64,000 nucleotides of DNA from Candidatus Spechtbacterales bacterium (GTDB taxonomy: Bacteria; Patescibacteriota; Minisyncoccia; Spechtbacterales; 2-12-FULL-38-22), in NCBI GenBank assembly GCA_040879145.1, contig JBBDKX010000021.1, forward strand, positions 29,256 through 93,255, in the 5' to 3' direction. The position numbers and the translations under genes were made by a program. This document shows, piece by piece, positions 9,153-41,335 of the stretch. A model generated the notes under the pieces. The model was not told where the DNA came from. It did no database searches and saw only the letters and a program-made list of their open reading frames with translations. Each line of letters opens with the position of its first letter. Position 1 is the stretch's first letter.

Positions 9153-9242
9153 AAGATTAAAAAATTTCTTTTGCCATTACAAAATATGGTTCGAGCCGAT
9201 TTGTTTTCGGGTTCTTTGGCAGAAGATTCTTTATGGAAATTA

Positions 9243-9938: not shown

Positions 9939-10316
9939 TTAGTCTGAATTTTTTGCTGCAATGACATCTATCTCCAATGTCGCTCCAAGCGGAAGCGATT
10001 GGACACCAACAGCTGTTCTTGCCGGAAGCGGATGTTCAAAGTAATTTCCGTAAACTTTATTTAGCGCAGATAGCTCCCTAAGATCTGTCAGGTATAAATG
10101 AACCCTGATGACATCCGCCAACGTTAGTTCTGCTTCTGCAAGTATCTTTTCAATACGGCGTACCGTAATCTCAAATTTTTCTTCAATTGAGTCGCCGATA
10201 ATATTCCATTCGTCATCGGCATGAATTTGACCAGATATAAATACAAGGCCATTGACTTCAACAGCTCCCGACAACGGGGCTCCTGATTCTTCAGATGATT
10301 GATAAACCTGTTTCAT
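9939..10316 (-). CDS. ridA: RidA/YjgF family reactive-intermediate deaminase
   Basis: 125 aa; YjgF/chorismate-mutase-like pattern (ARTAVGVQSLPLGATLEIDVIA). Confidence 0.85.
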   Translation of the reverse strand: MKQVYQSSEESGAPLSGAVEVNGLVFISGQIHADDEWNIIGDSIEEKFEITVRRIEKILAEAELTLADVIRVHLYLTDLRELSALNKVYGNYFEHPLPARTAVGVQSLPLGATLEIDVIAAKNSD

Positions 10317-10337
10317 GATTTTGTTTAAATCTTATTT

Positions 10338-10729
10338 TGGCGGTGTTTTTTGATTGATGTTCGAACTTTTTTTGAGGAAAACCCCCAATAAGGAAGCCAG
10401 CCCCGCCACGGCTCGGAAACCTCGCCACACCACAGAAAAATACTCTTTGCTCTTTTCATTTTGCGCGCGCCGGATTTCTTTTTCTTCTAATGAAAAGAGT
10501 ATTTTTCTGCGGTGTTCTGCCCTCCAAGTATTCGGGCAGGTGGCGGGGCTGTCCTCAATTTGATTTCGTAAAGAAAAAGCGGAATTCCCCCCAAACCCCC
10601 CTTCCGCTTTTTCTTTTCTCAAACGGAACGGGAACGGAAGCAGTCGGGCAAAAATTCCTTCCCCCCAAACCCCTTCCTTTTTGCCCGCCTGCTTGGGCTT
10701 CGCCCACAAAACTTTTCGGCGGGACGGCG
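10338..10729. repeat. 392-bp inverted repeat, copy 1 (IR-A1); GC-rich, highly self-complementary; partner at 20572-20964
   Basis: Reverse complement matches 20572..20964 with only a few mismatches; ends in TTGGCGGTG. Confidence 0.9.
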
Positions 10730-11467
10730 TTATTTTATCAAATTCCAATTATCGAGGAAATATCCCATTTCGTGATCTTTATTTCCGAGATACACTTTTT
10801 CGTCTCTAAATTTGATATTCACTCGATAGCGTTTTCCATGCCCGACTTCCAAAATGGCTTTTTCGTGGACTTTCTTTTCAACTTCATGAAATGGCAAAAT
10901 CAAAAAATTGTTTTTCTTCTCGCCGTGCAAAACAAAAATATAGTAAATATTTCCGTTGCTGTGGCGTTCAAAAGACACTTTGCGAATATCAAAAACATAA
11001 GTATCAAAACTATTCAAATTTGAGGTTTTAACCTGTATGCCAAACAATTGATTTTCTTTGACCGCCACAATATCCATTCCCACATCTACGCTCATTATAC
11101 TGGCGTTGAAACCACGAAAAAGCAACTCGCTACAAACTAAATACTCGCCAGCTTTTCCGGTAAATCCACCAGCAATAACAATTTTTTCTTCTTCCTCTTT
11201 TTCCGCTTCAATAATCTTTGGCGTTTCTTTGATTTCTTTTTTGTTTGGATTGAGCGCAAAAGTTCCGGGTGCGGTTTTGATAAAATCCGAGCCTTCAACT
11301 TTGGTTTTAATATCTACCGTGATTTGCGCGTTCATTGATGCTTCTGGTGTTGCGCCTTCTGTTTCCAAAATACCAGACTCCAAAGCCAACCGAGTGATTT
11401 CGGTATAATGCAAGGGCGTTTTTGCCTTTTTCAATATTTCAATTGCCGATTGTTTGAATGTGTTCAT
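10730..11467 (-). CDS. HARE-HTH (Mrr_N-like winged helix) + restriction-endonuclease-fold protein; candidate Mrr-like nuclease
   Basis: N-term SAIEILKKAKTPLHYTEITRLALESG...GSDFIKTAPGTFAL (HARE-HTH); middle GEYLVCSELLFRG...DVGMDIVAVKE...IQVKT resembles a PD-(D/E)xK core; translationally coupled to upstream gene. Confidence 0.5.
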   Translation of the reverse strand: MNTFKQSAIEILKKAKTPLHYTEITRLALESGILETEGATPEASMNAQITVDIKTKVEGSDFIKTAPGTFALNPNKKEIKETPKIIEAEKEEEEKIVIAGGFTGKAGEYLVCSELLFRGFNASIMSVDVGMDIVAVKENQLFGIQVKTSNLNSFDTYVFDIRKVSFERHSNGNIYYIFVLHGEKKNNFLILPFHEVEKKVHEKAILEVGHGKRYRVNIKFRDEKVYLGNKDHEMGYFLDNWNLIK

Positions 11468-11468
11468 A

Positions 11469-12755
11469 TTATTCTAAGGTTTTATCGTTATCAGAAAGCT
11501 CTGCAAATTTAGCTTCCATTGTGGGATTTCCGCGCGTTAGTCTTTTGATTGTTAAATCTTCAGCTTTATTATTGGCAAGGCGAAGATTATTTTCAGAAGA
11601 CAAGAGAGCGTCTTTAGTTTTTTGAAGATGATCAATGGTTCTGTCTATTTCTTCAATAGCGGTTTTAAATTTGCGACTAGCAAGATCATAATTTTTGGCA
11701 AAACCTTCTTTAAACTTATTTATATTATCCTCAAAGTTTGTTATATCAACATTTTGGCTTTTAACTAAAGCGAGTTCAGCTTTATATTTCAGTGAGTTCA
11801 TCGCCGCGTTGCGAAGCAAGGTAATAATTGGAATGAAAAATTGTGGACGAACAACATACATTTTGGGGTATTTATGAGCAACATCAACAATTCCGGTGTT
11901 GTATAGCTCATTTTCAGCTTCCAAAAGCGAAACAAGAACGGCATACTCGCATTTCTTTTCAGTACGATCTTTGTCTAGTTCTCGCAAAAAATCGTCGTTT
12001 CGTTTTTTTGTAGCAGTTTCATCTCCCTCATTCTTCATCTCAAACATGATTGAGATAATTTCATTGCCGGTTTCGTCGGTCTCTCGATAAACATAATCAC
12101 CCTTACTTCCTGTTTTTGAATCGTTATCTTTTTCAAAATAAGCGTGTTGAAAAGCAGTCGCGCGAAGTTTGTTAAATTCGGTTTCGCAATGCTGTTCAAG
12201 TGTTTCCCCAACCATTTTGGTTGAGAGCTTGAGCTTCATATCTTTGCGAAGGGCGATCTCATCATCTTTCATCTTTATAATATCGTCTTTGGTTTTAAGA
12301 TCGGCTAAATACTTTTCAAGCAATGATTTTTCCAGCAGTTGTTTTTCGGTTTCTTTGCTTTTTAGGTCATTAGCCAGATCATCACGCTCTTTTTCAATCT
12401 TTTTGACTGCTTCGGTAACACTGAGTTTTTTCTCTACCTCAGATTTATCAATCTTTGATTTCATTTCGGCGAGTTCAGCTTCCTTCTTCGCCAATTGTTC
12501 AGCAAGACTGCGATCCTTCTCGGCTCTTAACTCCACCAGTTCTTTATCTTTCTTCGCGAGTTCGTCTTGTAATGTATTTTTGAGATTGGATTCGGCTAAT
12601 TTAACAGCACTTTCTTTTTCCTTTTCCGCAATATTTAATCGCTCACGCAATTCTTCTTCAAATTTATGATCACGAACCTGTTTGAGGATATCAGCAAAAC
12701 CAGCCTCATCGACTTTGAAAACTTTTTTACAATTTGGACATATAATATCTTGCAT
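11469..12755 (-). CDS. DUF2130-like protein: N-terminal zinc ribbon, long coiled coil, C-terminal globular (RmuC/nuclease-like) domain
   Basis: [20 protein letters not shown], then about 200 aa of Glu/Lys coiled coil, C-terminal [22 protein letters not shown]; 18 nt after hsdR. Confidence 0.5.
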
Positions 12756-12773
12756 ATTGATTATTTTATTTTG

Positions 12774-15700
12774 TTATAACTTACCACCTGAAATATCAAA
12801 GAATCGCTCAAAGAAACTTGTTAGCTTATACAAAACACTTTCTCGTTTCTGTGTTCTTTCACCAGTTGGAGAAAATCGAGACACGGGCGGTAATACTTTT
12901 GATATCGCAGTACCAGTTGTTGCAACGCTTCCGTCTCGAAAAGCATTTTTTATAAATTTATAGGTTGCCTCTTTATCAAGATTTTCATTTTCAATAATTT
13001 TTTCCAATTCCTCAATCTTCTTTTCTTCTACAAATTTTTGCCAATCTTCATCAACAATTGAATGCACATCAAGAGAGGTAATAAATTGATTAATGAGATC
13101 CTTTTTATTTCGGAGTTCAACGCTAGAATCAATCGCTTTATTAATATCAACCAAAAGTTCTTTATTCTTTGTATGATCTTCGTGATATCTTTTTATAAGC
13201 CCTAAAATATAATCAATATTAATCTCGACTTGCTTAATAAGCTCCATTTCAAAGACTAGATCGTCATTAACATTTTCTTGTTCTCCATCAACACCTTTGC
13301 GAAATTCATTATACAAATCAATATACATGCTGTGATAATCCTGCACATCACGCTCGGTCAGAATTTCATTACCTGCGAATTCATCAAAAGTTGTCAGGAT
13401 ATTTCGCACACGCAAAACCGCTCCATATAATTTGATAAAATCTTTTTGGTTCTGTTCTCCAACAATACTTTCACCGACTGGAAATTTCTCTAAAAGTTCG
13501 TCTATTAAACTTTTGTAACCCCGGACTTGTTTTTCGCCGTCTTTATAGCCATTGTAATAATCGGCATAGGCTTTCAGCAGGACAATGCCACATGCTTCTT
13601 TGTCTCCAAAAAGTGCAATAGATTCGTTAGTTGCTTTTTCTAGGTTGCGAAAACAAACAATATTTCCAAAGGTTTTTACACTGTTTAAAATGCGGTTTGT
13701 TCTGGAAAATGCTTGTAACAATCCATGTAAACGAAGATTTTTATCAACCCATAAAGTATTAAGAGTTGTTGCGTCAAATCCGGTCAAAAACATGTTTACC
13801 ACAATCAAAATATCTATTTCTCTTTTTTTAACTCTTTCGCTTACATCTTTATAATAATTTTGAAACTTATCTGACGAAGTATCATAGGAAGTTCCAAACA
13901 TCTTGTTATAATCAACGATAGCTTTTTCCAGAAAATCTCGAGAGCTGACATCAAGTCCGCTCGTATCTTCAGAATTTTCATCAATCATTCCGTCCGCGTC
14001 TTCATCATTGACCCCAAAACTAAAAATCGTAGCTATTTTAAGTCGTTTGTCGCTTGGCTCGTCGGTTAGTTGCTTTTTAAATTCAAGATAATACTTTTTT
14101 GCCACATCAATAGACGAAACGGCAAAAATAGAATTAAATCCCGCCAGTCTGCGATCCTGAATTTTATAAAAACTATTTCGTTTTGTCTTTTGGTCAAAAT
14201 GTTCTCGAATATATCGGACAATATTTTCCAGTCGCTCTGGGGCGCAAAGTATAGCCTCGCGATCAATATCTTTCACTTTTGCATCTTCAATATTTTCCGC
14301 TTCACGAACTGTAGAAACATAATCAACCTTAAACGGCAAAACATTTTTGTCAGCAATTGCATTGACGATTGTGTAAGTGTGCAATTTTTCTCCAAAAGCT
14401 TGTTCGGTAGTTTTGAAATCAATGCGACCGCCAGATGAAGAATTTACCGCAAAAATTGGCGTGCCGGTAAAGCCAAAAAGATGATAATTGTTAAATGCTT
14501 TGACGATACTCGCATGCATATCGCCAAATTGTGAACGATGGCACTCGTCAAAAATCAAAACAATATGTCCGTCAAAAATAGTGTGTCCAGAGTTTCGATT
14601 GATAAATCTGTCTAATTTTTGAATCGTTGTAATAATTATCCGAGAATTAGAATTTTCTAATTGTTTTTTCAAAATAGCGGTACTGGTATTGCTATTCGCC
14701 GCCCCTTTTTCAAATTTGTCATACTCTCGCATTGTTTGATAGTCCAAATCCTTACGATCAACTACAAATAAAACTTTATCTACATAAGGTAATTTGCTGA
14801 CGAGTTGAGCGGTTTTAAAACTGGTCAAAGTCTTTCCCGAACCTGTCGTATGCCAAATATAACCGCCTGCTTCTATTGTCCCTAGTTTTTTATAATTTGT
14901 ACTAACCTCAACTCTGCTCAATATTCGTTCGGTAGCAACTATTTGATATGGTCGCATCGCTAAAAGCTGTTTATCGGTAGTAAACACACAATATTTAGTC
15001 AAAATATTCAAAATCGTATGCTTGGCAAAAAATGTCTTGGCAAAATCCATCAGCTCGGTAATTGGTTTATTTGTCGCGTCTGCCCACCAGCTCGTAAATT
15101 CAAAACTATTGCTCGATCTTTTTCCTTTTTTGATTTTGCCTTCGCTTGCTTCTTTTATGTGCTGTGATCTGGTTGTATTGCTGTAATATTTGGTATGCGT
15201 TCCATTGGAAATAATAAAAAGTTGTACATATTCAAAAAGTCCGCTGGATGCCCAAAAACTTTCTCGTTGGTAACGATTGATTTGATTAAATGCTTCTTGG
15301 ATGGCGACACCACGGCGTTTTAGCTCGATATGAACAAGAGGAAGTCCGTTTACCAGAACTGTCACATCATAACGATTCACTCGCTGTCCGTCCTCGGTCG
15401 CATATTGATTGATCACCTGCAAGCTGTTGTTGTGAATATTTTTCTTGTCTATTAGATCAATATTCTTAAAAGTGCCGTCATCTCGGTCTAATATTTTTGT
15501 GCTATCTTCTTGAATAGTGGCGGTTTTTTCTTCAATGCTTTGATTTGGATTGGCAATAATACTGACAAAAAACTTTCCCCATTCGGTATCGGTAAAAGTA
15601 AAATTATTTAGTTTTTCCAACTGTTGACGCAGATTAAGAACAAGCTCATTTTCAGAAGTGATTTTCAAATATTCGTATGCTTGCGTTTCTAATTGTTTTA

Positions 15701-15827
15701 TAAAAACACTCTCAAGATCGGCTTCACTTTGGTAGTGAGCCACTCTTTTGGTATCTGGAACATACTCGGCAACAACCGTGCTTTGAGTGCTTTCGGCGAC
15801 TAAGTTGTATTTATTCTTATTTGGCAT
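12774..15827 (-). CDS. hsdR: Type I restriction enzyme R subunit (HsdR)
   Basis: 1017 aa; HsdR_N, helicase motif I HTTGSGKTLT, motif II FDECHRSQ, C-terminal HsdR_C; overlaps hsdS by 11 nt. Confidence 0.9.
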   Translation of the reverse strand: MPNKNKYNLVAESTQSTVVAEYVPDTKRVAHYQSEADLESVFIKQLETQAYEYLKITSENELVLNLRQQLEKLNNFTFTDTEWGKFFVSIIANPNQSIEEKTATIQEDSTKILDRDDGTFKNIDLIDKKNIHNNSLQVINQYATEDGQRVNRYDVTVLVNGLPLVHIELKRRGVAIQEAFNQINRYQRESFWASSGLFEYVQLFIISNGTHTKYYSNTTRSQHIKEASEGKIKKGKRSSNSFEFTSWWADATNKPITELMDFAKTFFAKHTILNILTKYCVFTTDKQLLAMRPYQIVATERILSRVEVSTNYKKLGTIEAGGYIWHTTGSGKTLTSFKTAQLVSKLPYVDKVLFVVDRKDLDYQTMREYDKFEKGAANSNTSTAILKKQLENSNSRIIITTIQKLDRFINRNSGHTIFDGHIVLIFDECHRSQFGDMHASIVKAFNNYHLFGFTGTPIFAVNSSSGGRIDFKTTEQAFGEKLHTYTIVNAIADKNVLPFKVDYVSTVREAENIEDAKVKDIDREAILCAPERLENIVRYIREHFDQKTKRNSFYKIQDRRLAGFNSIFAVSSIDVAKKYYLEFKKQLTDEPSDKRLKIATIFSFGVNDEDADGMIDENSEDTSGLDVSSRDFLEKAIVDYNKMFGTSYDTSSDKFQNYYKDVSERVKKREIDILIVVNMFLTGFDATTLNTLWVDKNLRLHGLLQAFSRTNRILNSVKTFGNIVCFRNLEKATNESIALFGDKEACGIVLLKAYADYYNGYKDGEKQVRGYKSLIDELLEKFPVGESIVGEQNQKDFIKLYGAVLRVRNILTTFDEFAGNEILTERDVQDYHSMYIDLYNEFRKGVDGEQENVNDDLVFEMELIKQVEINIDYILGLIKRYHEDHTKNKELLVDINKAIDSSVELRNKKDLINQFITSLDVHSIVDEDWQKFVEEKKIEELEKIIENENLDKEATYKFIKNAFRDGSVATTGTAISKVLPPVSRFSPTGERTQKRESVLYKLTSFFERFFDISGGKL

Positions 15828-16998
15828 ATTCTTTTTCTTTGAAAGTTAGAAGTTTCCCTCGGTAGTATTCATATTGTGATCGACGAGCTTTGAGTTCAGC
15901 CGGTAAGCCAATTGAAATATCATTTACAAGGGCATCAAATTTGTCGAGGATTGAAACAATTCGTTTTTGTTCGGGTAAGAGTGGAATAGGAATTTTAAAC
16001 TCTTTTACCTTGGCATCTGAAATTGATGGATATGCAGAACCTTCTTGCTTCTGTTCAACATAATCATTAAAACGACTAGAAGCAATATTGAAATATATCC
16101 ATTTTGGCAGAACTTTTTTTTCATCTGCTCTTAAAACACAATATCCAGTACTTGCAATCTGCCCGTCATAAACATCATCAATTAGAGTATATCGTCGTAG
16201 GGTTGGACGAGTGGTTGCAAAAATCACATCATCTTTTTGTATAAGTTTTTGCGCTCTACTAGGTGCGTTATTTGAATTAATTTCAACAGTTTCATTTATA
16301 CTATGATCATCACGGCTAACAGATGTTAAATCAATATATTTATAAATTTTGTCTATTTCTTTCCATTTTATATTTTGAGTTGAGAATGTTACTTCCCCCA
16401 AAGTTTTATATTCTACATCTTTTATATTCAACAAATCATCTCGATAATGCTCATACTGCTTCTTCCTCGCCTCCAGCTCTGCCTCCAGCTCTGCCTCCAG
16501 CTCTGTAAAACTATCAAGAATTTTGACGATTTCTTGTTGGACTGGGAGGGGTGGGATGGGGATTTTGATTTTTTCCATTACATTACTCATTATCTTGGGA
16601 TTTCCCATTCCAGCACTAACATATTTTTTAGATAATGTCGCCAAGATATATGAAAGGAACTTCATGTTCACATTCCTATCTTTAGCTTTCAAAAGTCCGC
16701 AAACATTCGTAATACTAAATTTTCCGTTACGATAGAAAATTGAACCAGCATATGCTCCGTCAGTTGTCCAAGTTATATACTCACCGTCATAGTCATAAGT
16801 ATTGATGCGACCAAAAACACCGTTGTCCGCTGTTTGAGATGAATACACTGGATACTCGCCGGCATTTTCATTCAAATAATCTTTTGACATTACTCTCCCG
16901 CGATTGATTTGGCAGATTTCACCAATACTCTTTAACTCAATCCCATTCGGGCAAAGTTCAGCAATTAGTTTTTCGATTTTAGATTGATTAGTTATCAT
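15817..16998 (-). CDS. hsdS: Type I restriction-modification specificity subunit (HsdS), two target-recognition domains
   Basis: 393 aa; conserved central region LPPLPVQQEIVKILDSFTELEAELEAELEARKKQYEHYRDDLL and C-terminal LPEQKRIVSILDKFDALV...LKARRSQYEYYRGKLL. Confidence 0.85.
   Translation of the reverse strand: MITNQSKIEKLIAELCPNGIELKSIGEICQINRGRVMSKDYLNENAGEYPVYSSQTADNGVFGRINTYDYDGEYITWTTDGAYAGSIFYRNGKFSITNVCGLLKAKDRNVNMKFLSYILATLSKKYVSAGMGNPKIMSNVMEKIKIPIPPLPVQQEIVKILDSFTELEAELEAELEARKKQYEHYRDDLLNIKDVEYKTLGEVTFSTQNIKWKEIDKIYKYIDLTSVSRDDHSINETVEINSNNAPSRAQKLIQKDDVIFATTRPTLRRYTLIDDVYDGQIASTGYCVLRADEKKVLPKWIYFNIASSRFNDYVEQKQEGSAYPSISDAKVKEFKIPIPLLPEQKRIVSILDKFDALVNDISIGLPAELKARRSQYEYYRGKLLTFKEKEYAK
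16468..16503. repeat. 12-bp tandem repeat x3 (CGCCTCCAGCTC / TGCCTCCAGCTC x2) encoding (ELEA)n in hsdS central conserved region
   Basis: Directly visible in sequence; in-frame 4-aa repeat ELEAELEAELEA. Confidence 0.9.
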
Positions 16999-18593
16999 AA
17001 TTTTTTAAGTGAATCGACATCGCTTTCTATATATCCTCTTAAGATATCAATTGACTCTTTCAGTTTTTCATCAAAATCACCCTTCTTGTTTGCCGGATAA
17101 TGGATACAATTTCTAATAAATGTTGGCAATGTTACTTTCGCATTTTTTACTTTAGGTTTACTTGTATCAGTACAGTCTTTTTCAGCTTTTTTTATTTGTT
17201 TGAGATATTGTTCATCAAAAGCATTTATACCTATACTTTCAATATGCTTTGATTCATCTTTTTCTTTAGAGTTCTTGTCATTAACAAACCAATCTCTTAA
17301 TTTATCGTAAAGTTCGTTGTGGTATTGTTCATCTAAAATGTCGAAAACTTCATATGACACTTCTGCATAGCTTGTTTGTTTTTTACCTAATTCATCAACC
17401 TCTCGTACATTTGTATATTCTTCATTATTTTGATTTTTTATCTTTTCAACTCGATAATATCTACCCAAATCTTTTTTATCAATCATGTAGTTCGAGTGTG
17501 TGGCGAATAAAACAATATTACTTTTGCTATTGTTTGTAATCTCTACAAGCTGAGCAAGTAAATGCTCTTGTGCTTTTGGATGTAAATGTGTTTCAGGCTC
17601 ATCAAGTAAAATAATTGTATTTTGCAGTTCCTCATTTTTATTTTCTGCAACGACAGTTAATAAAAAAGAAATGAATTGCTTAAAACCATCACTCCGCATG
17701 TCTGATGTCTGAGCTTTTCCTTCTGTATCAATATCTTTAACATGAAAATTAATATGCCCATCCATTATCTTAAATGTAATTTCTATAGGATGTTTGGGCC
17801 AAGCTGTATTAATATGCTCTGTTACATTTTTGCCAAGTCTCTTTTCAAGATATTCACAAGTTGGAGTATCAGCTAAAGCATCCTCTAGTTCCTGTTTTAT
17901 TTTATCTTGAGAAATTGAAGATAGTAAAAAACAGTTTCTCAGAGGTATTGAGGTGTTTGTGTCATTAATAAACTGTTCAATATTTATCGGTTTTGAAATT
18001 AGATAACGATCTTCTGCAGTCCAGAAAATTGTTTTATGTACATTTTCCTCTATAAAGTTATCAAATTCATCTTTGTTATTGATTTCAATTTCTTGATCTC
18101 CTTCAAAAACTGAAGTTGAATATTCAGGATCAGCACTAGCCTTAGAAAAACTAATAACATAATCTGCAATCAAAGAGCTCAAAATTTTATTCTTTGGTTT
18201 TTTAACTTCCTTAATTTTACTATCTTCAACATCTTGCGTCTGCCCACCTTCTATAGCAGAAACTTCTTTTTCTAAATTTGGGACTGGATTATCAACAGAA
18301 TCTTCTTTATTTAAAATCTCGTACAATTCCTTATCCTCTTTCGAAGTAATACTATATCGATAAGTAATTTTTATTTCTTCTTTTAATCTAAAGTCTTTTA
18401 ATAATGGAAGTTTTGTACCAGAGTCGTCAACTAATCCATCTTTTAAGCCAATCGCTTTTAATATAGATGATTTACCAGCTTCATTTATTCCTATTAATCC
18501 GTAAGTGAAACTATTGTCATCTCTTTTGATTATGTTAAAAGGAGTTTCTTTTATACTTCTATAATTTTCAATTGTAATTTTTGTGATTTTCAT
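16995..18593 (-). CDS. ABC/SMC-like AAA ATPase (OLD/AAA_15-like head) with about 130-aa C-terminal domain of unknown function, embedded between hsdM and hsdS
   Basis: Start reassigned to MKITKITIENYRSIK (ATG 18593, 4 nt after hsdM stop); Walker A GINEAGKSSILKAIGL; Walker B ILLDEPETHLHP; ATHSNYMID. Confidence 0.7.
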   Translation of the reverse strand: MKITKITIENYRSIKETPFNIIKRDDNSFTYGLIGINEAGKSSILKAIGLKDGLVDDSGTKLPLLKDFRLKEEIKITYRYSITSKEDKELYEILNKEDSVDNPVPNLEKEVSAIEGGQTQDVEDSKIKEVKKPKNKILSSLIADYVISFSKASADPEYSTSVFEGDQEIEINNKDEFDNFIEENVHKTIFWTAEDRYLISKPINIEQFINDTNTSIPLRNCFLLSSISQDKIKQELEDALADTPTCEYLEKRLGKNVTEHINTAWPKHPIEITFKIMDGHINFHVKDIDTEGKAQTSDMRSDGFKQFISFLLTVVAENKNEELQNTIILLDEPETHLHPKAQEHLLAQLVEITNNSKSNIVLFATHSNYMIDKKDLGRYYRVEKIKNQNNEEYTNVREVDELGKKQTSYAEVSYEVFDILDEQYHNELYDKLRDWFVNDKNSKEKDESKHIESIGINAFDEQYLKQIKKAEKDCTDTSKPKVKNAKVTLPTFIRNCIHYPANKKGDFDEKLKESIDILRGYIESDVDSLKKL

Positions 18594-18597
18594 AAAT

Positions 18598-20178
18598 TTA
18601 TCGTTTAGTATTTTCAATATCCGCCACAATCTCATCAATCGCAGTACGCAGTTCATTTTGTCTTGACACGATCTTGGCAATTTTTTCGTTGAGTTCCGTT
18701 ATATTCACCACCTCGCGTGTATCTTCCGCCATCACATAACTTGAAACCGCAATATTGTAATCATTCTCACCAATAGTTTTATTATCAACTAACTTTGCAA
18801 AATACTCTGCATCTTGTCGTAGCGTAAAAGCATCAAGAATTTTTTTGCGATTTCCTTCGCTCAATTTATTTTTATTTCCGCCCCGTACAAATTCAGCCGA
18901 GGCATCAATAAATAAAGTTTTGTTGTCTTTTTTGCTTTTTTTCAAAACAATAATGCAAGTAGCAATAGTCACCCCAAAAAATAGATCGGGGGGAAGCTGG
19001 ATAACCGTATCAATATAGTTATTATCAACCAAATACTTGCGGATTTTTTGTTCAGCTCCGCCACGATAGAGAACTCCCGGAAATTCAACAATCGCCGCCG
19101 TTCCGCTGGTTGAAAGCCACGCAAGCATGTGCATGGTAAAAGCGAGATCAGCTTTGCTCTTTGGCGCCAACACCCCAGCCGGCGAAAAACGCGGATCATT
19201 AATCATCAAAGGATTGGCATCGCCGTCCCACTTTATCGAATATGGCGGATTAGAAACAATGGCGTCAAACGGTTCATCATCCCAATGTTTTGGATCAGTG
19301 AGTGTGTCGCCGTGAGCAATATCAAAATGATTGTAATTAATATCATGCAAAAACATGTTGATACGGCAAAGATTGTAGGTAGTGAGATTTATTTCTTGAC
19401 CAAAAAATCCCTGCCTGACATTTTCCTTGCCAAGCACTTTTGCAAATTTCAAAAGAAGCGAACCAGATCCACAGGCTGGATCGTAGACTTTATTAACTTC
19501 TGTTTTGCCTGCTGTTGCGATTTCCGCCAAAAGCTCGCTCACTTCTTGAGGTGTATAATATTCTCCGCCAGATTTACCAGCATTAGATGCGAACATCGCC
19601 ATTAAATATTCGTAAGCATCACCAAAAGCGTCGATTGTATTATCTCCATAATTACCAAGACGAAGATCGCCGATGGCTTCTAAAAGTTTTACGAGTTTTT
19701 GATTTCTTTTCTCTACAGTTCCACCGAGCTTATTTGAATTCACATCTAAATCGTCAAATAATCCTTTCAAGTCATCTTCACTATCAAATCCTTTCGCAGA
19801 ATTTTCGATATTATCAAAAACATTTGAAAGTGTTTCGTTAAGTTTTGCATCGTTGCGAGCATTTTTACGAACATTTACAAAAAGAGCACTTGGTAAAATA
19901 TAAAAACCTTTTTCTTTTATAGTGTCGGCTCTTCCAAATTCAGCTTCTTTATCAGAAAGTGAAGCATAATCAAAATCTTTGTTGCCGGTGCGTCGCTCAT
20001 CGGCATTGATGTAATTTGTAAGATTTTCGCTGATGAAACGATAAAAAAGTATTCCAAGAACATATTGCTTGAAATCCCACCCATCAACGGCACCTCGCAA
20101 ATCATTGGCAATCTGCCAAATAGCACGATGAAGTTCGGCTCGTTCTTGTTCTTTGGTTGTATTTAGATTATTTGCCAT
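18598..20178 (-). CDS. hsdM: Type I restriction-modification DNA methyltransferase (HsdM), N6-adenine
   Basis: 526 aa; HsdM_N; SAM motif YDPACGSGSLL; catalytic SNPPYSIKW. Confidence 0.9.
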   Translation of the reverse strand: MANNLNTTKEQERAELHRAIWQIANDLRGAVDGWDFKQYVLGILFYRFISENLTNYINADERRTGNKDFDYASLSDKEAEFGRADTIKEKGFYILPSALFVNVRKNARNDAKLNETLSNVFDNIENSAKGFDSEDDLKGLFDDLDVNSNKLGGTVEKRNQKLVKLLEAIGDLRLGNYGDNTIDAFGDAYEYLMAMFASNAGKSGGEYYTPQEVSELLAEIATAGKTEVNKVYDPACGSGSLLLKFAKVLGKENVRQGFFGQEINLTTYNLCRINMFLHDINYNHFDIAHGDTLTDPKHWDDEPFDAIVSNPPYSIKWDGDANPLMINDPRFSPAGVLAPKSKADLAFTMHMLAWLSTSGTAAIVEFPGVLYRGGAEQKIRKYLVDNNYIDTVIQLPPDLFFGVTIATCIIVLKKSKKDNKTLFIDASAEFVRGGNKNKLSEGNRKKILDAFTLRQDAEYFAKLVDNKTIGENDYNIAVSSYVMAEDTREVVNITELNEKIAKIVSRQNELRTAIDEIVADIENTKR

Positions 20179-20182
20179 AATT

Positions 20183-20392
20183 TTATTTCATTAAATCATC
20201 AAGCGAAACGCCGAGAGCGTCCGCAATTTTTTTGACTGTATCAATAGTAGGGTTGGGAGTAGAGCCAGCTTCAATTTTGGCAATCGTATGAAAAGCCAAA
20301 TCTGCTTTTTTTGAAAGCACATCTTGAGAAATACCGAGCTTGTTTCGGTATTTCTTTATATTCTCGCCAATTGTGGATTTTTCGTTTGACAT
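20183..20392 (-). CDS. XRE-family HTH transcriptional regulator (candidate C-protein/controller of the R-M operon)
   Basis: 69 aa; IKKYRNKLGISQDVLSKKADLAFHTIAKIEAG HTH_XRE; first gene of operon, 4 nt before hsdM. Confidence 0.8.
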   Translation of the reverse strand: MSNEKSTIGENIKKYRNKLGISQDVLSKKADLAFHTIAKIEAGSTPNPTIDTVKKIADALGVSLDDLMK

Positions 20393-20397
20393 ATTCG

Positions 20398-20451
20398 TAT
20401 AGTTTTACTATTATAGTTGTATAGTATTAAAAACATCACTTATTTATAGTT
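20398..20451 (-). promoter_or_regulatory. Putative promoter/operator of XRE-hsdM operon: TATAAT -10 (minus strand, 20410-20415) and 4 copies of ACTATA(A)
   Basis: Minus-strand read: ...ACTATACAACTATAATAGTAAAACTATACGAAT-ATG; repeated half-sites resemble C-box operators. Confidence 0.3.
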
Positions 20452-20571
20452 AGTATATGAAATTTTTAGCATTTAGTCAAACAAAATTAGGGAGTTCTTT
20501 TGACATAACGCGCGCACGGGTGGGTGGGGCAAGCGTTATCCCTCTTTTATCCTCTCTTTTGTTTTCTGTCC

Positions 20572-20964
20572 CGCCGTCCCGCCGAAAAGTTTTGGGGGCG
20601 AAGCCCAAGCAGGCGGGCAAAAAGGAAGGGGGTTGGGGGGAAGGAATTTTTGCCCGACTGCTTCCGTTCCCGTTCCGTTTGAGAAAAGAAAAAGCGGAAG
20701 GGGGGTTTGGGGGGAATTCCGCTTTTTCTTTACGAAATCAAATTGAGGACAGCCCCGCCACCTGCCCGAATACTTGGAGGGCAGAACACCGCAGAAAAAT
20801 ACTCTTTTCATTAGAAGAAAAAGAAATCCGGCGCGCGCAAAATGAAAAGAGCAAAGAGTATTTTTCTGTGGTGTGGCGAGGTTTCCGAGCCGTGGCGGGG
20901 CTGGCTTCCTTATTGGGGGTTTTCCTCAAAAAAAGTTCGAACATCAATCAAAAAACACCGCCAA
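20572..20964. repeat. 392-bp inverted repeat, copy 2 (IR-A2)
   Basis: Near-identical reverse complement of 10338..10729; ends ...CACCGCCAA, overlapping the start of IR-B1. Confidence 0.9.
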
Positions 20965-21091
20965 TTTTCACTTTTTGTGAAATCGTAAGGAATTGCCTCG
21001 GCGCAAAGCGCCTCGGCATGGTATTTTTCCGCAATTTTGAAGGCATTTTTGAAATCCAAAAACAAAGAGCGGTCGGCAATGCGGAAGTTCG
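20958..21091. repeat. About 134-bp inverted repeat IR-B1 (inverted copy of the recombinase 3' coding end plus tRNA-Ser-proximal sequence)
   Basis: Reverse complement identical to 22575..22709. Confidence 0.85.
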
Positions 21092-21205
21092 CAGAGCGAA
21101 GCTCTGGCAAAATGAAATTTTGCAAACCAATCTTTTTTCTTTCGCTTTCAGCGAAAGGTTGAGCGTATTTTTCTTTGATTGCCCAAAAACTAATTTCAAA
21201 ACAAT

Positions 21206-22819
21206 ATGGACAACATAAATTTACAAACCAAAAAGTTTTTCCTCTATGCCCGTAAATCCACGGACGAACCCGAAAGGCAGGTTTTGAGTATTGAAGCGCA
21301 AATTTTCGAGCTGAAAGAATACGCCCGAAAAGAAAATTTGCAGATCGTCCGTGAATTTGTGGAAAGCAAAACCGCCAAAGAACCCGGGCGAGAAATTTTT
21401 AATGAAATGGTGGCGGGCATAGAGAAAAACGAAGCCGAGGGAATTTTAGCGTGGCACCCTGACCGTCTTGCTCGCAATTCCATAGACGGCGGACGAATAA
21501 TCTATCTTGTAGATACTGGAAAGATCACCACGCTAAAATTTCCAACTTTTTGGTTTGATTCAACTCCACAGGGAAAATTTATGTTGTCCATTGCTTTTGG
21601 GCAATCAAAATACTATGTGGATAATCTTTCGGAAAATATAAAGAGGGGTATTCGCCAGAAATTGCGAAATGGAATTTGGCCCGCTTGGGCGCCACTTGGC
21701 TATATAAACGATAAAAACGCTCGCTGTATCGCTGTGGACAAAGAAAAGGCGAAGTATATCAAGCGGGCTTTTGAAATGTATTCAACTGGCGAATATCCCC
21801 TCGCTCAAATCCGAAAGATTATCAATTCCTTGGGCTTGGTTGGCAAGAAAGGCAAAATGCTTTCCGTCTCAAATTATCAATATATGCTCAAGAACAAAAT
21901 ATATTTTGGCATGATTGAATATAACGGCGAATTGTATGACGGAAAGCATGAACCGATTATCACAAAGAAACTTTTTGATTCTGTTCAAGAAGTGATGATG
22001 AAAAAATCCAAACCGAAAACGCCAAAATTGAAACCGTATGTGTATAGAGGATTTTTCCGTTGCGGAGAGTGTGGCTGTTTCATAACTACCGAAACGCAGA
22101 AAGGTCATAACTACCTGCGATGCACTAAACGGAAAAATCCTTGCACGCAAAAATATGTTCGCGAGGAAATCATCACTTCTCAAATAAAAGAGGAAATCAA
22201 AAAAGTTTCTTTGTCTTCCGCTTGGGCAAACGCTTCAATCAATTATTTTGAAAATGAAAAATTGAAAACCGCCCAAGCGGAAAGCTCTTTTGCCCAAAAG
22301 TCGCGAGATGAGCTTGTGGAAACAGAAACAAAACTTGATCGTTTGCTTGATTTACATTTGGAAGGCAGTTTGTCGCAAACGGAATATGCTACTAAAAAGC
22401 ACAAGCTCATTCTCGCAAAAAAGGATTTGGAAGAAAAAATCTCGTCTTTTGGGCGAAAGAGCAATAATCGGTTCGAACTTGCCATAAACTTCATAAAAGA
22501 AGCCAACCAAGCCGAAAAATACGCTCAACAAGAAAATCCCGAAAGGATTCGGGATTTTCTCAAAAAGATTGGTTCGAACTTCCGCATTGCCGACCGCTCT
22601 TTGTTTTTGGATTTCAAAAATGCCTTCAAAATTGCGGAAAAATACCATGCCGAGGCGCTTTGCGCCGAGGCAATTCCTTACGATTTCACAAAAAGTGAAA
22701 ATTGGCGGAGGGGGTGGGACTCGAACCCACATAGGCTTGCGCCTGCCAGTTTTCAAGACTGGTTCCTTAGCCAATTCGGAGCACCCCTCCTTATTTATTT
22801 TTTCTTCTTTTTACCCTGA
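21206..22819 (+). CDS. Large serine recombinase (resolvase N-domain + recombinase domain + zinc ribbon + coiled coil)
   Basis: YARKSTDEPERQ catalytic Ser motif; PLGYIND recombinase domain; CGECGCFITTETQKGHNYLRC zinc ribbon; ORF as predicted runs through IR-B2 and antisense across tRNA-Ser, so true stop is uncertain. Confidence 0.8.
   Translation: MDNINLQTKKFFLYARKSTDEPERQVLSIEAQIFELKEYARKENLQIVREFVESKTAKEPGREIFNEMVAGIEKNEAEGILAWHPDRLARNSIDGGRIIYLVDTGKITTLKFPTFWFDSTPQGKFMLSIAFGQSKYYVDNLSENIKRGIRQKLRNGIWPAWAPLGYINDKNARCIAVDKEKAKYIKRAFEMYSTGEYPLAQIRKIINSLGLVGKKGKMLSVSNYQYMLKNKIYFGMIEYNGELYDGKHEPIITKKLFDSVQEVMMKKSKPKTPKLKPYVYRGFFRCGECGCFITTETQKGHNYLRCTKRKNPCTQKYVREEIITSQIKEEIKKVSLSSAWANASINYFENEKLKTAQAESSFAQKSRDELVETETKLDRLLDLHLEGSLSQTEYATKKHKLILAKKDLEEKISSFGRKSNNRFELAINFIKEANQAEKYAQQENPERIRDFLKKIGSNFRIADRSLFLDFKNAFKIAEKYHAEALCAEAIPYDFTKSENWRRGWDSNPHRLAPASFQDWFLSQFGAPLLIYFFFFLP
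22575..22709. repeat. IR-B2 (partner of 20958-21091), ending in the tRNA-Ser 3' terminus
   Basis: Sequence identity with reverse complement of IR-B1. Confidence 0.85.
22703..22790 (-). tRNA. tRNA-Ser (anticodon UGA), long variable arm, CCA encoded
   Basis: Minus-strand GGAGGGGTGCTCCGAATTGGCTAAGGAACCAGTCTTGAAAACTGGCAGGCGCAAGCCTATGTGGGTTCGAGTCCCACCCCCTCCGCCA; cloverleaf and anticodon loop CTTGAAA. Confidence 0.85.
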
Positions 22820-23500: not shown

Positions 23501-23538
23501 ATAAAATATTAGCTTGTTCTGTTTAATTATTGCTGATG

Positions 23539-23623
23539 CGGAGGAGGTGGGATTCGAACCCACGGGCCGCTAACGCGGCACGGTTTAGCAAACCGTCCCA
23601 TTTGACCACTCTGGCACTCCTCC
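23539..23623 (-). tRNA. tRNA-Ser (anticodon GCU), long variable arm
   Basis: Minus strand GGAGGAGTGCCAGAGTGGTCAAATGGGACGGTTTGCTAAACCGTGCCGCGTTAGCGGCCCGTGGGTTCGAATCCCACCTCCTCCG. Confidence 0.8.
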
Positions 23624-23643: not shown

Positions 23644-24660
23644 TTAATTGTTGTATTTTTTCAAATGTTTAGGATTATTACTGCTTATTGTATCAAAATA
23701 AATTTTCATGTCATGCTTACTATCCAAACGCACATCCCGCCCTGCCAGTCTTGGATTTAAGCCAGTATTGCGCATTATTTTGAAAACTGAATTTCTAAGG
23801 GGTTCTGAATAAGATGTAAATGACAGTTTTTTATAAGAGTACTCCTTACTCTTAACTCTATATCTATGAATAAAAATAGAGCCATCTGTGTCAACCAAGC
23901 CCCGCAGGCACGCAATTTCGAAATCTTTATCACCCATTATCCATTTCGGTATATCTACCTGCTTTTTTATTTTATTACCTCTTACTAAACCCAGATTATT
24001 TTCACAAAACCTTACTAACTCTACTCGAGATACCGCATAAATACACGCATTAGCATCTTTTCGTTCGTGAATTCCCACATATACTCCAAACAGATTCTCC
24101 ATTAAATTTTTTACATATACGCCATATTTTTTATCATCTTTACTATGAAGTGTAACTGTAACCTGTTGATTAGATATACCCCCATCCCCTAACATTATTC
24201 CAACAAACTCTGCAAGGCTTTTTGAGTATTTAGGTTTTTTAATTTTTATTGGAGCACTTGTAAGCCCGCTTGACTTAAAACGCCCTTCTTTCTCCCACCA
24301 TTCATACCATTTCTGTTTTCTGTATTTCTCATTTTTTGGCATTTCCCCATACTTACTAATAACAGCCTCCCACCCCAACTTTGCGCCTTCATGCGCATAC
24401 CAATATTTATCTAACATCGTTATATCTTTAGGCCAAGATTGTTTAGATTTCTCACATAAAATTTTCAACGATTTTTCATTTATTAAAAATTTTTCACGTC
24501 GCCAATCTCTAACAGTACGCTCAGACCTACCACACCACTTTGCCATTTGTTCAACTGAAAACTCTTTTTCTATATTTTCTATAAAAGCTTTTTGTTTTCC
24601 TTTTGGAAATCTTATTCTGCTATCTTTAATCTTTTCAGCCATATCTCCATAATACACCAT
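23644..24660 (-). CDS. Free-standing LAGLIDADG homing endonuclease (two motifs) with N-terminal HTH-like region
   Basis: LAEFVGIMLGDGGIS and LRGLVDTDGSIF LAGLIDADG motifs; 338 aa; 21 nt upstream of tRNA-Ser(GCT). Confidence 0.8.
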   Translation of the reverse strand: MVYYGDMAEKIKDSRIRFPKGKQKAFIENIEKEFSVEQMAKWCGRSERTVRDWRREKFLINEKSLKILCEKSKQSWPKDITMLDKYWYAHEGAKLGWEAVISKYGEMPKNEKYRKQKWYEWWEKEGRFKSSGLTSAPIKIKKPKYSKSLAEFVGIMLGDGGISNQQVTVTLHSKDDKKYGVYVKNLMENLFGVYVGIHERKDANACIYAVSRVELVRFCENNLGLVRGNKIKKQVDIPKWIMGDKDFEIACLRGLVDTDGSIFIHRYRVKSKEYSYKKLSFTSYSEPLRNSVFKIMRNTGLNPRLAGRDVRLDSKHDMKIYFDTISSNNPKHLKKYNN

Positions 24661-28560: not shown

Positions 28561-29184
28561 TCAAACGAAACTAGAGAGATAAAGCTCTCCCTTTATCTTG
28601 CCCTCTTCTCTCATTTTTATCAGTTTTCCTCTTAAGTCAGGAGTTAGGGATGAGCAGCCTGTAAAATAAGCATCTCCGTTGAATATAATATTGTCGGGTA
28701 TTTCTTTGAGAGATGTGCAGCCTCCAAAATAAGCCCTTCTTTCAAAGGTTGTGTTGTCGGGTATTTCTTTGAGAGATGTGCAGTGCCCAAAATTAGCATC
28801 TCCTTCAAAGGTTGTGTTGTCGGGTATTTCTTTTAATGTTTCCGCATAGGGACTAAAATCTATATTCTTGGACACGATGATCTTCTCTTTTTCTGTATCT
28901 ATTTTAAAATTGGCTTCAATAAATTCTCCCGCCTCCTCTTCGCTGTTACCCAGGTTTTCCCGCGCCCATTGTATGAGTTTTTCTTTTTCTCTTTCTGGGT
29001 TGAACTCCTGTTCTTGAGCGCCACTATCTGCATTATCATATTTTTCTAATTCATCTAGATCTTGAGGATCATCATCCTGAGGCATCGCACCTCCTAGTTT
29101 TTCTATACTCATAATATTAAAATTTAATTCTACTCTTCCATAATACCCCCCCCGACCTAAAAATGCAAGCGTTTTTATACACAA
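28561..29184 (-). CDS. Leucine-rich-repeat (BspA/TpLRR-like) repeat protein; true start uncertain (29184 or 29112)
   Basis: 21-aa repeats IPDNTTFEGDANFGHCTSLKE x3; 63-bp nucleotide tandem repeats. Confidence 0.5.
   Translation of the reverse strand: MCIKTLAFLGRGGYYGRVELNFNIMSIEKLGGAMPQDDDPQDLDELEKYDNADSGAQEQEFNPEREKEKLIQWARENLGNSEEEAGEFIEANFKIDTEKEKIIVSKNIDFSPYAETLKEIPDNTTFEGDANFGHCTSLKEIPDNTTFERRAYFGGCTSLKEIPDNIIFNGDAYFTGCSSLTPDLRGKLIKMREEGKIKGELYLSSFV
28681..28828. repeat. 63-bp tandem repeats (about 2.3 copies plus a degenerate copy upstream) inside LRR gene
   Basis: TTGTCGGGTATTTCTTTGAGAGATGTGCAG... repeated. Confidence 0.85.
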
Positions 29185-29246: not shown

Positions 29247-29312
29247 TACAACAAGTACAACCTATTAAAAGAGAGACGGCCGTCTCTCTTTTAATAGGTT
29301 GTACTTGTTGTA
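29247..29312. repeat. 66-bp perfect palindrome (33+33, no loop)
   Basis: Checked base-by-base: 29247..29279 is the reverse complement of 29280..29312. Confidence 0.9.
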
Positions 29313-39559: not shown

Positions 39560-39939
39560 AGCCCGTTCTTTGCAATCTAAAATCAATTTGACGGAGCGAA
39601 TTTTCAAATGAATGCTAGGCGTGAGGAGCGAAGCGATGCCAGGAGCATCGTGAGCAACGAACAACAACGCAGGCATTGAAAATTCGCCCGCCGACTCATT
39701 TAATTTACATTGCGGTCCCATCGTCTAGTCTGGCCTAGGACGCCAGGTTTTCATCCTGGTAACACGGGTTCGAATCCCGTTGGGACCGCAATGTACGTTA
39801 GTAAAAGGAAACAAAATAGTACGCCATCTGCTTCGTTACGCTTTCCTAGAAGTAATATAAATTACTCCTTCGTCACCGCGCCTACCATATGGCGCACTCT
39901 TTTGTTTTCAAATTGATTTTAGATTGCAAAGAACGGGCT
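39560..39939. repeat. Segment bounded by perfect 31-bp inverted repeat (39560-39590 / 39909-39939) enclosing an intact tRNA-Glu
   Basis: AGCCCGTTCTTTGCAATCTAAAATCAATTTG and its exact reverse complement. Confidence 0.85.
39714..39788 (+). tRNA. tRNA-Glu (anticodon UUC)
   Basis: GGTCCCATCGTCTAGTCTGGCCTAGGACGCCAGGTTTTCATCCTGGTAACACGGGTTCGAATCCCGTTGGGACCG; close to the E. coli tRNA-Glu pattern. Confidence 0.85.
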
Positions 39940-39942
39940 GAA

Positions 39943-39991
39943 GCCTAGGACGCCAGGTTTTCATCCTGGTAACACGGGTTCGAATCCCGTT
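39943..39991 (+). other. 3' two-thirds of a second tRNA-Glu copy (D-loop to CCA), lacking its own 5' end
   Basis: GCCTAGGACGCCAGGTTTTCATCCTGGTAACACGGGTTCGAATCCCGTTGGGACCGCCA identical to intact copy; CCA encoded here but not in intact copy. Confidence 0.6.
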
Positions 39992-40058
39992 GGGACCGCC
40001 ATATAAATTACCAAAAGGAAAACGGCTTATTAAGCCGTTTTCCTTTATAGATCAATTA

Positions 40059-41249: not shown

Positions 41250-41257
41250 TTAACTCA

Positions 41258-41335
41258 ATACTATGAGTTAATTATAATAATTAACTCATGCTCATGAGTT
41301 AATTATAATAATCGACTCACAGGCATGAGTCGATT
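41258..41335. terminator. Three consecutive hairpins sharing stem TAACTCA/TGAGTTA (bidirectional terminator cluster)
   Basis: TTAACTCAATACTATGAGTTAA; TTAACTCATGCTCATGAGTTAA; TCGACTCACAGGCATGAGTCGA between convergent genes. Confidence 0.5.

Follow-up and report, generated by a model that had tools for sequence, protein, structure and literature searches.

The 393-nt inverted repeat in the window (the whole 64,000-nt stretch of Candidatus Spechtbacterales DNA analyzed here) consists of the two cargo-side arms of a serine-recombinase island specific for tRNA-Ser. The island covers approximately 12.4 kb (10337-22708) and is sited at the 3' end of a tRNA-Ser(tga) gene. The explanation that we consider probable as a whole is that the two copies form the inverted ends ("P arms") of the cargo module in an island that a large serine recombinase (LSR) would have inserted into the 3' end of this tRNA gene, together with the roles proposed below for the individual arms.

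A repeat search placed the arms 9842 nt apart, 393 nt each and 99% complementary, and a direct arm-to-arm comparison displayed two mismatches (10669/20632 and 10706/20595), confirming the near-identical pair described in the first-pass annotation apart from the outer coordinate of the left arm, which had been off by one base. The GC content was 50.9% in the arms compared to 39.4% in the window, and the stems quoted previously were present, including GGGCAAAAA...TTTTTGCCC, GCGGAA-G6TTTG6-(AA)TTCCGC, and the long AAAAATACTCTTT.../...AAAGAGTATTTTT. Folding surpassed that of dinucleotide shuffles (z = -5.7 and -4.9 for the two strands; 0/100 shuffles as good). The GC-rich and highly self-complementary character of the repeat was upheld. 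The 138-aa ORF running through the arm had been regarded as spurious and is non-coding, because homologous arms differ by 1-nt and other non-triplet indels and the ORF lacked a Pfam match. At the gathering score, Rfam recognized four tRNAs and nothing else in the whole window, the arm alone gave noise and no credible match at E<=10, and BLAST searches with the arm against phage and plasmid collections returned no match.

The first-pass annotation had also suggested a MITE. Long inverted repeats around a cargo and a non-coding repeat with many internal palindromes are features of such an element, or of remnant ends left by an IS or a composite transposon that had picked up the R-M system. However, the 64-kb window contained no arm copies besides the two, related elements carried two each in >100 loci with none outside the arms, and neither a transposase nor a target-site duplication was identified around the arms, the flanks of which had nothing in common beyond the att core. 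In addition, the neighboring enzyme is an LSR with canonical attP/attB geometry at a tRNA gene. An origin as a MITE or as transposon ends is thus largely refuted already and very improbable. The same annotation had named a known IS terminal region as an outcome that would overturn it; the arms are indeed termini of a mobile element, although one with a serine recombinase in place of a transposase.

Read from the tRNA, the island is ordered as tRNA, core, P' (134 nt, the recombinase 3' end), recombinase, 114-nt spacer, inverted P', core, inverted P arm, promoters with the XRE regulator and the type I R-M cargo, P arm, core, and host DNA (Table 1). The second inverted repeat, P', abuts the right arm, and its two 134-nt copies surround the recombinase gene. 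The recombinase matched PF00239, PF07508, and PF13408, all above the cut-offs, and its ORF meets no stop codon ahead of the core and stays open into the tRNA as far as 22819. The tRNA-Ser(tga) was intact according to ARAGORN and Rfam, i.e., the target gene is restored; it ends ...CTCCGCCA, followed by the same 127 nt as those after the right arm, and P' comes after G73 plus CCA. The arm ends with the heptamer CCGCCAA, P' begins with it, and the tRNA end coincides with it. The 134-nt perfect inverted repeat, the adjoining recombinase and tRNA-Ser, and the type I R-M operon between the arms were absent from the first-pass annotation.

Table 1. Coordinates of the island features, given as positions in the window.
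Feature	Position	Strand	Description
attR	10320-10366	-	Host DNA (AATAAGATTT...) next to a P-type half-site with TTCGAA, 16 nt, and a central CC (about 10343-10344)
Left (distal) cargo arm P	10337-10729	-	G-rich sense on minus strand; ends ...GTTCGAAC-ATCAATCAAAAAACA-CCGCCAA
Cargo operon	10730-20178	-	Six genes
HARE-HTH/PD-(D/E)XK protein	10730-11467	-	
DUF2130 protein	11469-12755	-	
HsdR	12774-15827	-	
HsdS	15817-16998	-	
OLD/AriA-like ATPase	16995-18680	-	
HsdM	18598-20178	-	
XRE/Cro-type HTH regulator	20183-20392	-	69 aa; best PADLOC match is an R-M "control protein" model
Face-to-face promoter-like sites	20386-20480		
P_int, promoter-like	20386-20414	+	TTGACA-17-TATTAT; overlaps XRE start; directed through right arm to recombinase
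P_xre, promoter-like	20480-20452	-	TTGACT-17-TATACT; for XRE, faces P_int
Leader element outside repeat	20487-20539	+	(TT)AGGGAG, then hairpin ATAACGC[GCGCACGGGTGGGTGGGGCAA]GCGTTAT
Right (internal) cargo arm P	20572-20964	+	G-rich sense on plus strand; hairpin modules A to E, invariant G-rich loops
Internal attP, intact	20936-20981	+	TTCGAA, 16 nt, CC (20958-20959), 16 nt, TGTGAA; dyad-symmetric, ~46 bp
P' leader copy	20958-21091	+	Inverted copy of recombinase 3' codons
Spacer u	21092-21205	+	Opens with ~33-nt double hairpin (CAGAGCGAAGCTCTG, GCAAAATGAAATTTTGC) inserted in GTTCGAAC, between GTTCG and AAC
Large serine recombinase (LSR)	21206-22702	+	Resolvase, Recombinase, Zn_ribbon_recom domains
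P' recombinase 3' copy	22575-22708	-	100% identical to leader copy; last ~45 recombinase codons; abuts tRNA-Ser(tga) 3' end
tRNA-Ser(tga)	22703-22790	-	attB-type half-site of attL: TTCGAG, 11 nt, CC at about 22707-22708
tRNA-Ser(gct)	23538-23623	-	Unoccupied potential attB; ...TTCGAATCCCACCTCCTCCG followed by CATCAGC

The junctions of the island are arranged as att sites. The tRNA with P' has the structure of an attL, the right arm with the neighboring leader copy of P' is a complete second attP in inverted orientation, and the element order read from the tRNA gives the left arm and the adjoining host DNA, which lies upstream of a RidA-family gene (9939-10316), the structure of an attR. Each arm carries in its outer ~25 nt an attP-type half-site with a T-loop look-alike, TTCGAA, 16 nt from the central CC, and every arm, distant relatives included, ends ...GGrTTTTsyTCAAAAAAwGTTCGAAC-N-AAAAAACA-CCGCC. 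P' carries a mirrored T(G/T)CGAA likewise 16 nt from the central CC, which is non-palindromic. The spacing from TTCGAN to CC was 16 nt in 33/35 arms and 11 nt in 37/41 tRNA-Ser genes, where the motif is the T-loop; the outer motif of the attB half-site is therefore 5 bp closer to the center than in attP. In LSR systems the ZD motif lies 5 bp closer to the center in attB and this offset distinguishes attP from attB (Rutherford et al., 2013; PMC3783163), and the 16 vs. 11 nt spacing of the island sites fits this published offset. The sequence downstream of the tRNA (B') was not conserved. The internal, tRNA, and distal junctions have only CCG in common, usually followed by CCAA.

Given the junction and spacing data, the CACCGCCAA shared by the outer ends of both arms is the crossover core plus part of an integrase half-site. 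The outer ends do copy the tRNA-Ser 3' end, as had been reported, while mimicry of the tRNA as such did not hold. The crossover would occur at CC, the last two acceptor-stem bases, with the CCA end of the tRNA supplied by P'; the empty site would read GGGTTCGAGTCCCACCCCCTCCGCCAAAATAAGATTT and the junction of an excised circle would read distal arm, P', and recombinase codons (AACCAATC). Neither an empty site nor an excised circle was found for the window island, and no fetched locus was syntenic with the host flanks of the window. Several other schemes were considered and rejected. A crossover at the T-loop TTCGAA was excluded, since between TTCGAA and CCG the tRNA has a sequence specific to the host and the arm one specific to the element, and the different spacing (16 vs. 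11 nt) argues against the arm end being functionally equal to the tRNA end with integration reversible without an RDF. Two independent symmetric cassettes with a non-polar CG crossover were discarded because the site symmetry centers on CC rather than CG, and the palindromic junctions predicted by such cassettes (P'*|P', P|P*, and B|P*) were absent from 86 loci and from the viral collection. Finally, hairpin-capped or fold-back integration of a single-stranded dumbbell predicts inverted host flanks on both sides of the recombinase, which were identified only in one odd locus (L035) with two identical inverted tRNA-Ser(gga) genes, an arrangement for which the P-arm island does not account either.

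Recombinase homologs numbered in the thousands (closest at 93% identity), and a relative was encoded in at least 517 matched stretches from the species-representative genome set with one genome per species. Identities of at least 90% were maintained across many class-level lineages of Patescibacteria, with 61-65% in Elusimicrobia. Self-comparison and tRNA prediction were run on all fetched loci, of which 80 were kept, and nearly all of these displayed the recombinase between ~134-nt inverted repeats, mostly 98-100% identical, with an opposite-strand tRNA-Ser gene (tga, gct, cga, or gga) after it. Approximately 25 loci, most of them with long upstream flanks, further contained an inverted repeat of 150-420 nt around 1.3-9.8 kb of varied cargo, such as a DpnII-type R-M system, a GmrSD/HNH protein with a methylase, and transporters with GreA. 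The cargo-bracketing repeats were mostly 97-100% identical (90-94% in two elements) and end exactly at the P' start. Near-identical recombinases were identified in unrelated hosts, where they adjoin different tRNA-Ser genes and accompany different cargo, and relatives with 48-53% recombinase identity (L019 and L087) had the same layout, both loci holding tandem arrays; this tandem accretion counts in favor of the island. A viral origin of the element was rejected, as the element was absent from the viral contig collection, the attP 23-mer being missing from IMG/VR. No recombination directionality factor was identified. Inverted duplications are known to arise from amplification and from repeat resolution during assembly, and a fold-back chimera in the window might be suspected on that ground; at the level of the family such an artefact is refuted by the same architecture in dozens of independent assemblies from different projects, contigs of 0.5-1 Mb among them, and by element-specific arm sequences with precise boundaries, leaving it a negligible probability.

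All genes between the arms are on the minus strand, and HsdR, HsdS, the OLD/AriA-like ATPase, and HsdM make up a complete type I R-M system. The left arm starts directly after the stop codon of the last cargo gene. At the other end of the operon, an ORF of 62-71 aa adjoined the internal arm in 19/23 complete elements, and a homolog of the 69-aa XRE regulator was detected in 17 of them. P_int is a strong promoter-like site, and its -35 TGACA was invariant in 10 elements, some with a regulator only ~50% identical to the XRE of the window. The 114-nt spacer ahead of the recombinase gene yielded no promoter-like site. The AGGGAG of the leader element was likewise invariant, its hairpin stem covaries between elements while the G-rich loop is conserved, and covariation between elements was also displayed by the double hairpin of the spacer. 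If the promoter-like sites are real, the G-rich sense is the transcribed sense at both arm copies.

Outside the half-site, arms of different elements were homologous yet modular, with whole hairpins present or absent as units and the distal parts sorting into several types. RNAalifold on 13 arms of the window type, which stand for only 3-4 lineages, gave 54 consensus pairs, of which 19 were changed on both sides. Paired cells amounted to 97.5% vs. 88.5% in column shuffles (0/500 reached it) and ~50% with the partners slid, and the covariation score was 0.251 vs. 0.125 in shuffles (0/500) and about 0.05-0.07 with the partners slid. The comparison across homologous copies therefore indicates selection for pairing in the arm hairpins. 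The loops GGAAGGGGGTTGGGGGGAAGGAA and GGAAGGGGGGTTTGGGGGGAATTCC were essentially invariant (L001B differs at two loop positions), and the G-loop modules were confined to the arms, with two per complete element and none elsewhere in the window or in the flanks of >100 loci. The consensus fold had nearly equal energies on the G-rich and reverse strands (-62.2 vs. -57.3 kcal/mol), and the shared helices contained 11 G.U cells vs. 3 A.C cells on the G-rich strand, suggesting a mild preference for this strand. The arm covariation could also reflect a single-stranded DNA or cruciform function of a DNA palindrome.

These data bear on the structured RNA proposed in the first-pass annotation, which stands with respect to selected pairing and fails as a free-standing RNA gene. 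A structured non-coding RNA gene, or a cis-regulatory RNA with no connection to mobility, present as two copies that flank the R-M operon by chance, would account for the low folding energy, the strong covariation with invariant loops, and the agreement of the G-rich sense with the local direction of transcription at both copies. The arms nevertheless belong to no Rfam family even at E<=10, relatives without exception have the sequence solely as the two arms at the boundaries of a recombinase island, where it ends at the crossover core, the hairpin modules come and go as units, and the terminal part is an integrase half-site, making an RNA gene independent of the island quite improbable. For the island arms, the remaining ~345 nt is instead proposed to form conserved hairpins that act as a structured RNA barrier or regulator, a role suggested by the G-rich sense coinciding with the local sense of transcription at both copies. 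The right arm, which lies in the ~785-nt leader that separates P_int from the recombinase gene, may serve as an attenuator of recombinase expression, and the left arm, at the 3' end of the cargo operon, as a terminator or insulator limiting read-through. We infer this RNA role from the promoter-like matches and the covariation.

A recombination role falls short of explaining the 393-nt identity of the arms because an LSR site needs only ~46 bp. Between the window and L003, 83 differences were common to both arms and one was arm-specific, and the corresponding comparison with L059 gave 18 shared vs. 3 arm-specific differences, signaling that the arms evolve in concert; gene conversion between the copies may keep them identical. 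A few elements had mismatched arms (L057 and L021) and several had mismatched P' copies with 75-90% identity, which together point to exchange between elements.

The two inverted-repeat pairs would make both the recombinase segment and the cargo-plus-promoter segment invertible, and either inversion would uncouple the recombinase from P_int, as the promoters lie in the arm-bounded segment and the recombinase in the P'-bounded segment. The pattern of arm end, P', and recombinase 3' codons was absent from the 86 genome-derived loci and was found in 28 metagenome contigs of four groups, namely standard elements in which the leader copy lacks the small hairpin insertion and the repeats are longer; tandem arrays; two contigs (L097 and L100) with the junction expected of an excised circle or, equally, of a tandem array; and contigs with the recombinase segment inverted. 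Three of the latter (L089, L090, and L093) have P' arms that differ by 8-14%, which excludes an assembly ambiguity as the source of their orientation. The cargo was reversed in L049 and L052 (standard in 21/23), the latter being trustworthy because its arms are only 94% identical. A flipped recombinase segment occurred in 0 of ~60 genome loci, meaning that inversion is rare or that the other form is selected against.

The element might accordingly be thought of as primarily a DNA inversion switch, in which the cargo-plus-promoter and recombinase segments flip via RecA or the recombinase to turn the recombinase on or off or to phase-vary the defense cargo, with the hairpins secondary. P_int and P_xre inside the arm-bounded segment and pointing outward, the trustworthy isomers of both the recombinase segment and the cargo (L052), and a concerted evolution as expected of recombining inverted repeats all fit such a switch. 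This is countered by the uniform recombinase orientation in the genome loci and the predominantly standard cargo, by canonical LSRs not recombining attP with attL or attR, and by hairpin covariation and invariant loops that a switch leaves without explanation; we regard it as rather unlikely, if worth keeping in mind. Patescibacteria are naturally competent, which, like recombinases with at least 90% identity across very distant Patescibacteria, is in line with another proposal, that the repeats serve transfer or establishment and that the mobile form is either a circle with two inverted 527-bp attP regions, resembling the 2-micron plasmid, or a fold-back single strand giving a double-stranded attP after uptake. 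By construction, attL x attR excision would yield a circle with two inverted attP regions between unique segments of 1.5 kb and 9.8 kb. Nonetheless, no circular contig (none with a terminal overlap among the 28 metagenome matches) and no palindromic junction was found, the element has no replication gene, and the central dinucleotide CC is non-palindromic, rendering this proposal improbable. For the island with paired P arms that we favor, a further arrangement suggests that the internal attP is active: L006 contains an intact second tRNA-Ser gene, inverted and joined to a leader-type copy of P', the product expected of internal attP x a second tRNA-Ser attB. A second attP and long identical arms may be retained for a switch, for autoregulation combined with gene conversion, for 5'-3' RNA pairing, for a circle with two attP sites, or for folding back once DNA has been taken up.

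Judged by its domains and the geometry of its sites, the island is a member of the large serine integrase systems. It resembles phiC31, Bxb1, A118/LI, SPbeta, and the SCCmec Ccr enzymes in its set of Resolvase, Recombinase, and zinc-ribbon domains, the short core, the ~46-bp dyad-symmetric attP, the shorter attB with a 5-bp motif offset, and an island bounded by attL and attR. Unlike those systems, it targets the 3' end of any tRNA-Ser gene, the recombinase ORF spans the crossover site, a complete second attP lies inverted in the recombinase leader, the arms measure 134 nt and 150-420 nt rather than ~25 bp, and phage genes and a recognizable RDF are lacking. The nearest functional analogue is the Tycheposons, tRNA-integrating cargo elements of Prochlorococcus (bioRxiv 10.1101/2020.12.28.424599). 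These are similarly small cargo islands at tRNA genes of streamlined genomes, with tandem accretion at the same tRNA and variable cargo modules behind a conserved integrase, and differ in the host phylum. Tycheposons mostly carry a tyrosine recombinase and replication genes, and we know of no double inverted-repeat layout or internal attP described for them.

Other parallels concern the repeats. The yeast 2-micron plasmid, with Flp/FRT in 599-bp inverted repeats, also has long identical repeats containing the recombinase target, and 2-micron and plastid inverted repeats share with the island the division into small and large unique segments, as would apply to its excised circle, as well as concerted evolution and orientation isomers. 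In contrast to 2-micron, the island enzyme is a serine rather than a tyrosine recombinase, the isomers are rare rather than equimolar, and the island is not known to have a replication function or a free circle. Hin/Gin/Pin-type segments and invertible promoters are alike in having a serine recombinase gene between inverted repeats and an outward promoter inside the repeat-bounded segment, whereas the island enzyme is large and integrase-type with attP/attB geometry, the repeats measure 134-393 nt vs. ~26 bp, and the element is a mobile one that targets tRNA genes. Integron attC sites, REP elements, and MITEs are comparable as non-coding GC-rich imperfect palindromes with pairing conserved rather than sequence, although the island arms are not dispersed and occur as one pair per element at fixed positions and, unlike attC, do not serve a tyrosine integrase as folded single-stranded substrates.

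A full-text search of a literature library found no published description of the double inverted-repeat layout. The internal inverted attP, a recombinase ORF running through the crossover, long concerted arms, and a covarying hairpin element set the island apart from the LSR systems that we could find described. As a tentative proposal, to which we would give somewhat less than an even chance, the elements may constitute an undescribed class of LSR element widespread in Patescibacteria and Elusimicrobia, with a self-complementary double inverted-repeat design, a second attP in the recombinase leader, an excised form with two inverted attP regions, both segments invertible, and arms whose structured RNA or single-stranded DNA element with G-rich loops gates recombinase expression or establishment after uptake.

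The importance of the element lies mainly in its spread in Patescibacteria and in a design so far without explanation. The retained internal attP and the long concerted arms with covarying structure go beyond current serine-integrase models and hint at an unstudied layer of control. The site rules, i.e., a ~46-bp attP and an attB extending from the T-loop to the acceptor end of any tRNA-Ser, could, if confirmed, provide an integration tool with a broad host range for organisms in which genetic manipulation is very difficult. In Patescibacteria (CPR), genomes are tiny and few mobile elements have been recognized. One recombinase family carries R-M systems and other defense and transport cargo into their tRNA-Ser genes, and its spread and cargo therefore make it a candidate for a major route of gene exchange and defense-island turnover in Patescibacteria.

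Within the large serine recombinase gene of the tRNA-Ser(tga) island, the sequence GGTTCGAAC-N10-CCGAC sits right at the inner edge of the 134-nt repeat (P') and has a counterpart in the leader copy; with its 11-nt spacing, it is an attB-type pseudo half-site. In most elements, the leader copy of this repeat carries a ~33-nt covarying double hairpin inserted between GTTCG and AAC.

Odd tRNA contexts were identified at two loci encoding relatives of the recombinase. The recombinase cassette of locus L035 is situated between two identical inverted tRNA-Ser(gga) genes and the adjoining 134-nt repeat alleles differ, a combination that one canonical recombination event does not explain. At locus L111, the tRNA beside a 91%-identical recombinase was called by ARAGORN as tRNA-Trp(cca) and not tRNA-Ser; despite this call the junction sequence was unchanged (CTCCGCCA). 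Either ARAGORN misassigned the gene or the target here lies outside the tRNA-Ser family.

Within the island cargo, hsdS and hsdM enclose an OLD/AriA-like ABC ATPase gene. A small conserved XRE regulator matched the R-M "control protein" model best; in relatives, this regulator was also found with non-R-M cargo. Outside the island, a 28-nt stretch with 86% identity to part of the long hairpin in the 393-nt inverted repeat arms is probably a chance match.

The window also displayed possible traces of other mobile elements. The 3' part of tRNA-Glu(ttc) was present again 210 nt downstream as a 79-nt direct repeat (92%), with a perfect 32-nt inverted repeat around it, and this arrangement resembles a scar, or the att sites, of a further small element that used tRNA-Glu. 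An intergenic 67-nt sequence shared 94% identity with the post-core sequence of a second island family (locus L087) and is possibly the relic of an older island beside the RidA-family gene. Finally, a 338-aa ORF that separates tRNA-Ser(gct) from the genes beyond it contained LAGLIDADG-like motifs (LGDGGIS and LVDTDGSI) and may represent a free-standing homing-endonuclease-like gene.

Coordinates of the sites, genes, and repeats in the window and related loci
Feature	Sequence	Position	Remark
Pseudo half-site	window	22566-22592	
Leader-copy counterpart	window	about 21076-21100	
tRNA-Ser(gga) pair	L035	9667-9885, 11371-11589	
Region with tRNA-Trp(cca) call	L111	1331-2902	
ABC ATPase	window	16995-18680	
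XRE regulator	window	20183-20392	
Arm-hairpin match	window	46457-46484	matches 20832-20859
tRNA-Glu(ttc) region	window	39714-40021	
Direct repeat	window	39733-39811, 39943-40021	
Inverted repeat	window	39560-39591, 39908-39939	
Post-core match	window	9156-9222	
Post-core counterparts	L087	2636-2702, 3937-4001	after crossover core
338-aa ORF	window	23644-24660 (-)	
Three 63-nt tandem repeats	window	28646-28834	73-75% identity to first copy
Palindrome	window	29247-29312	33+33 nt, perfect
AT-rich palindromes	window	41245-41338	cluster
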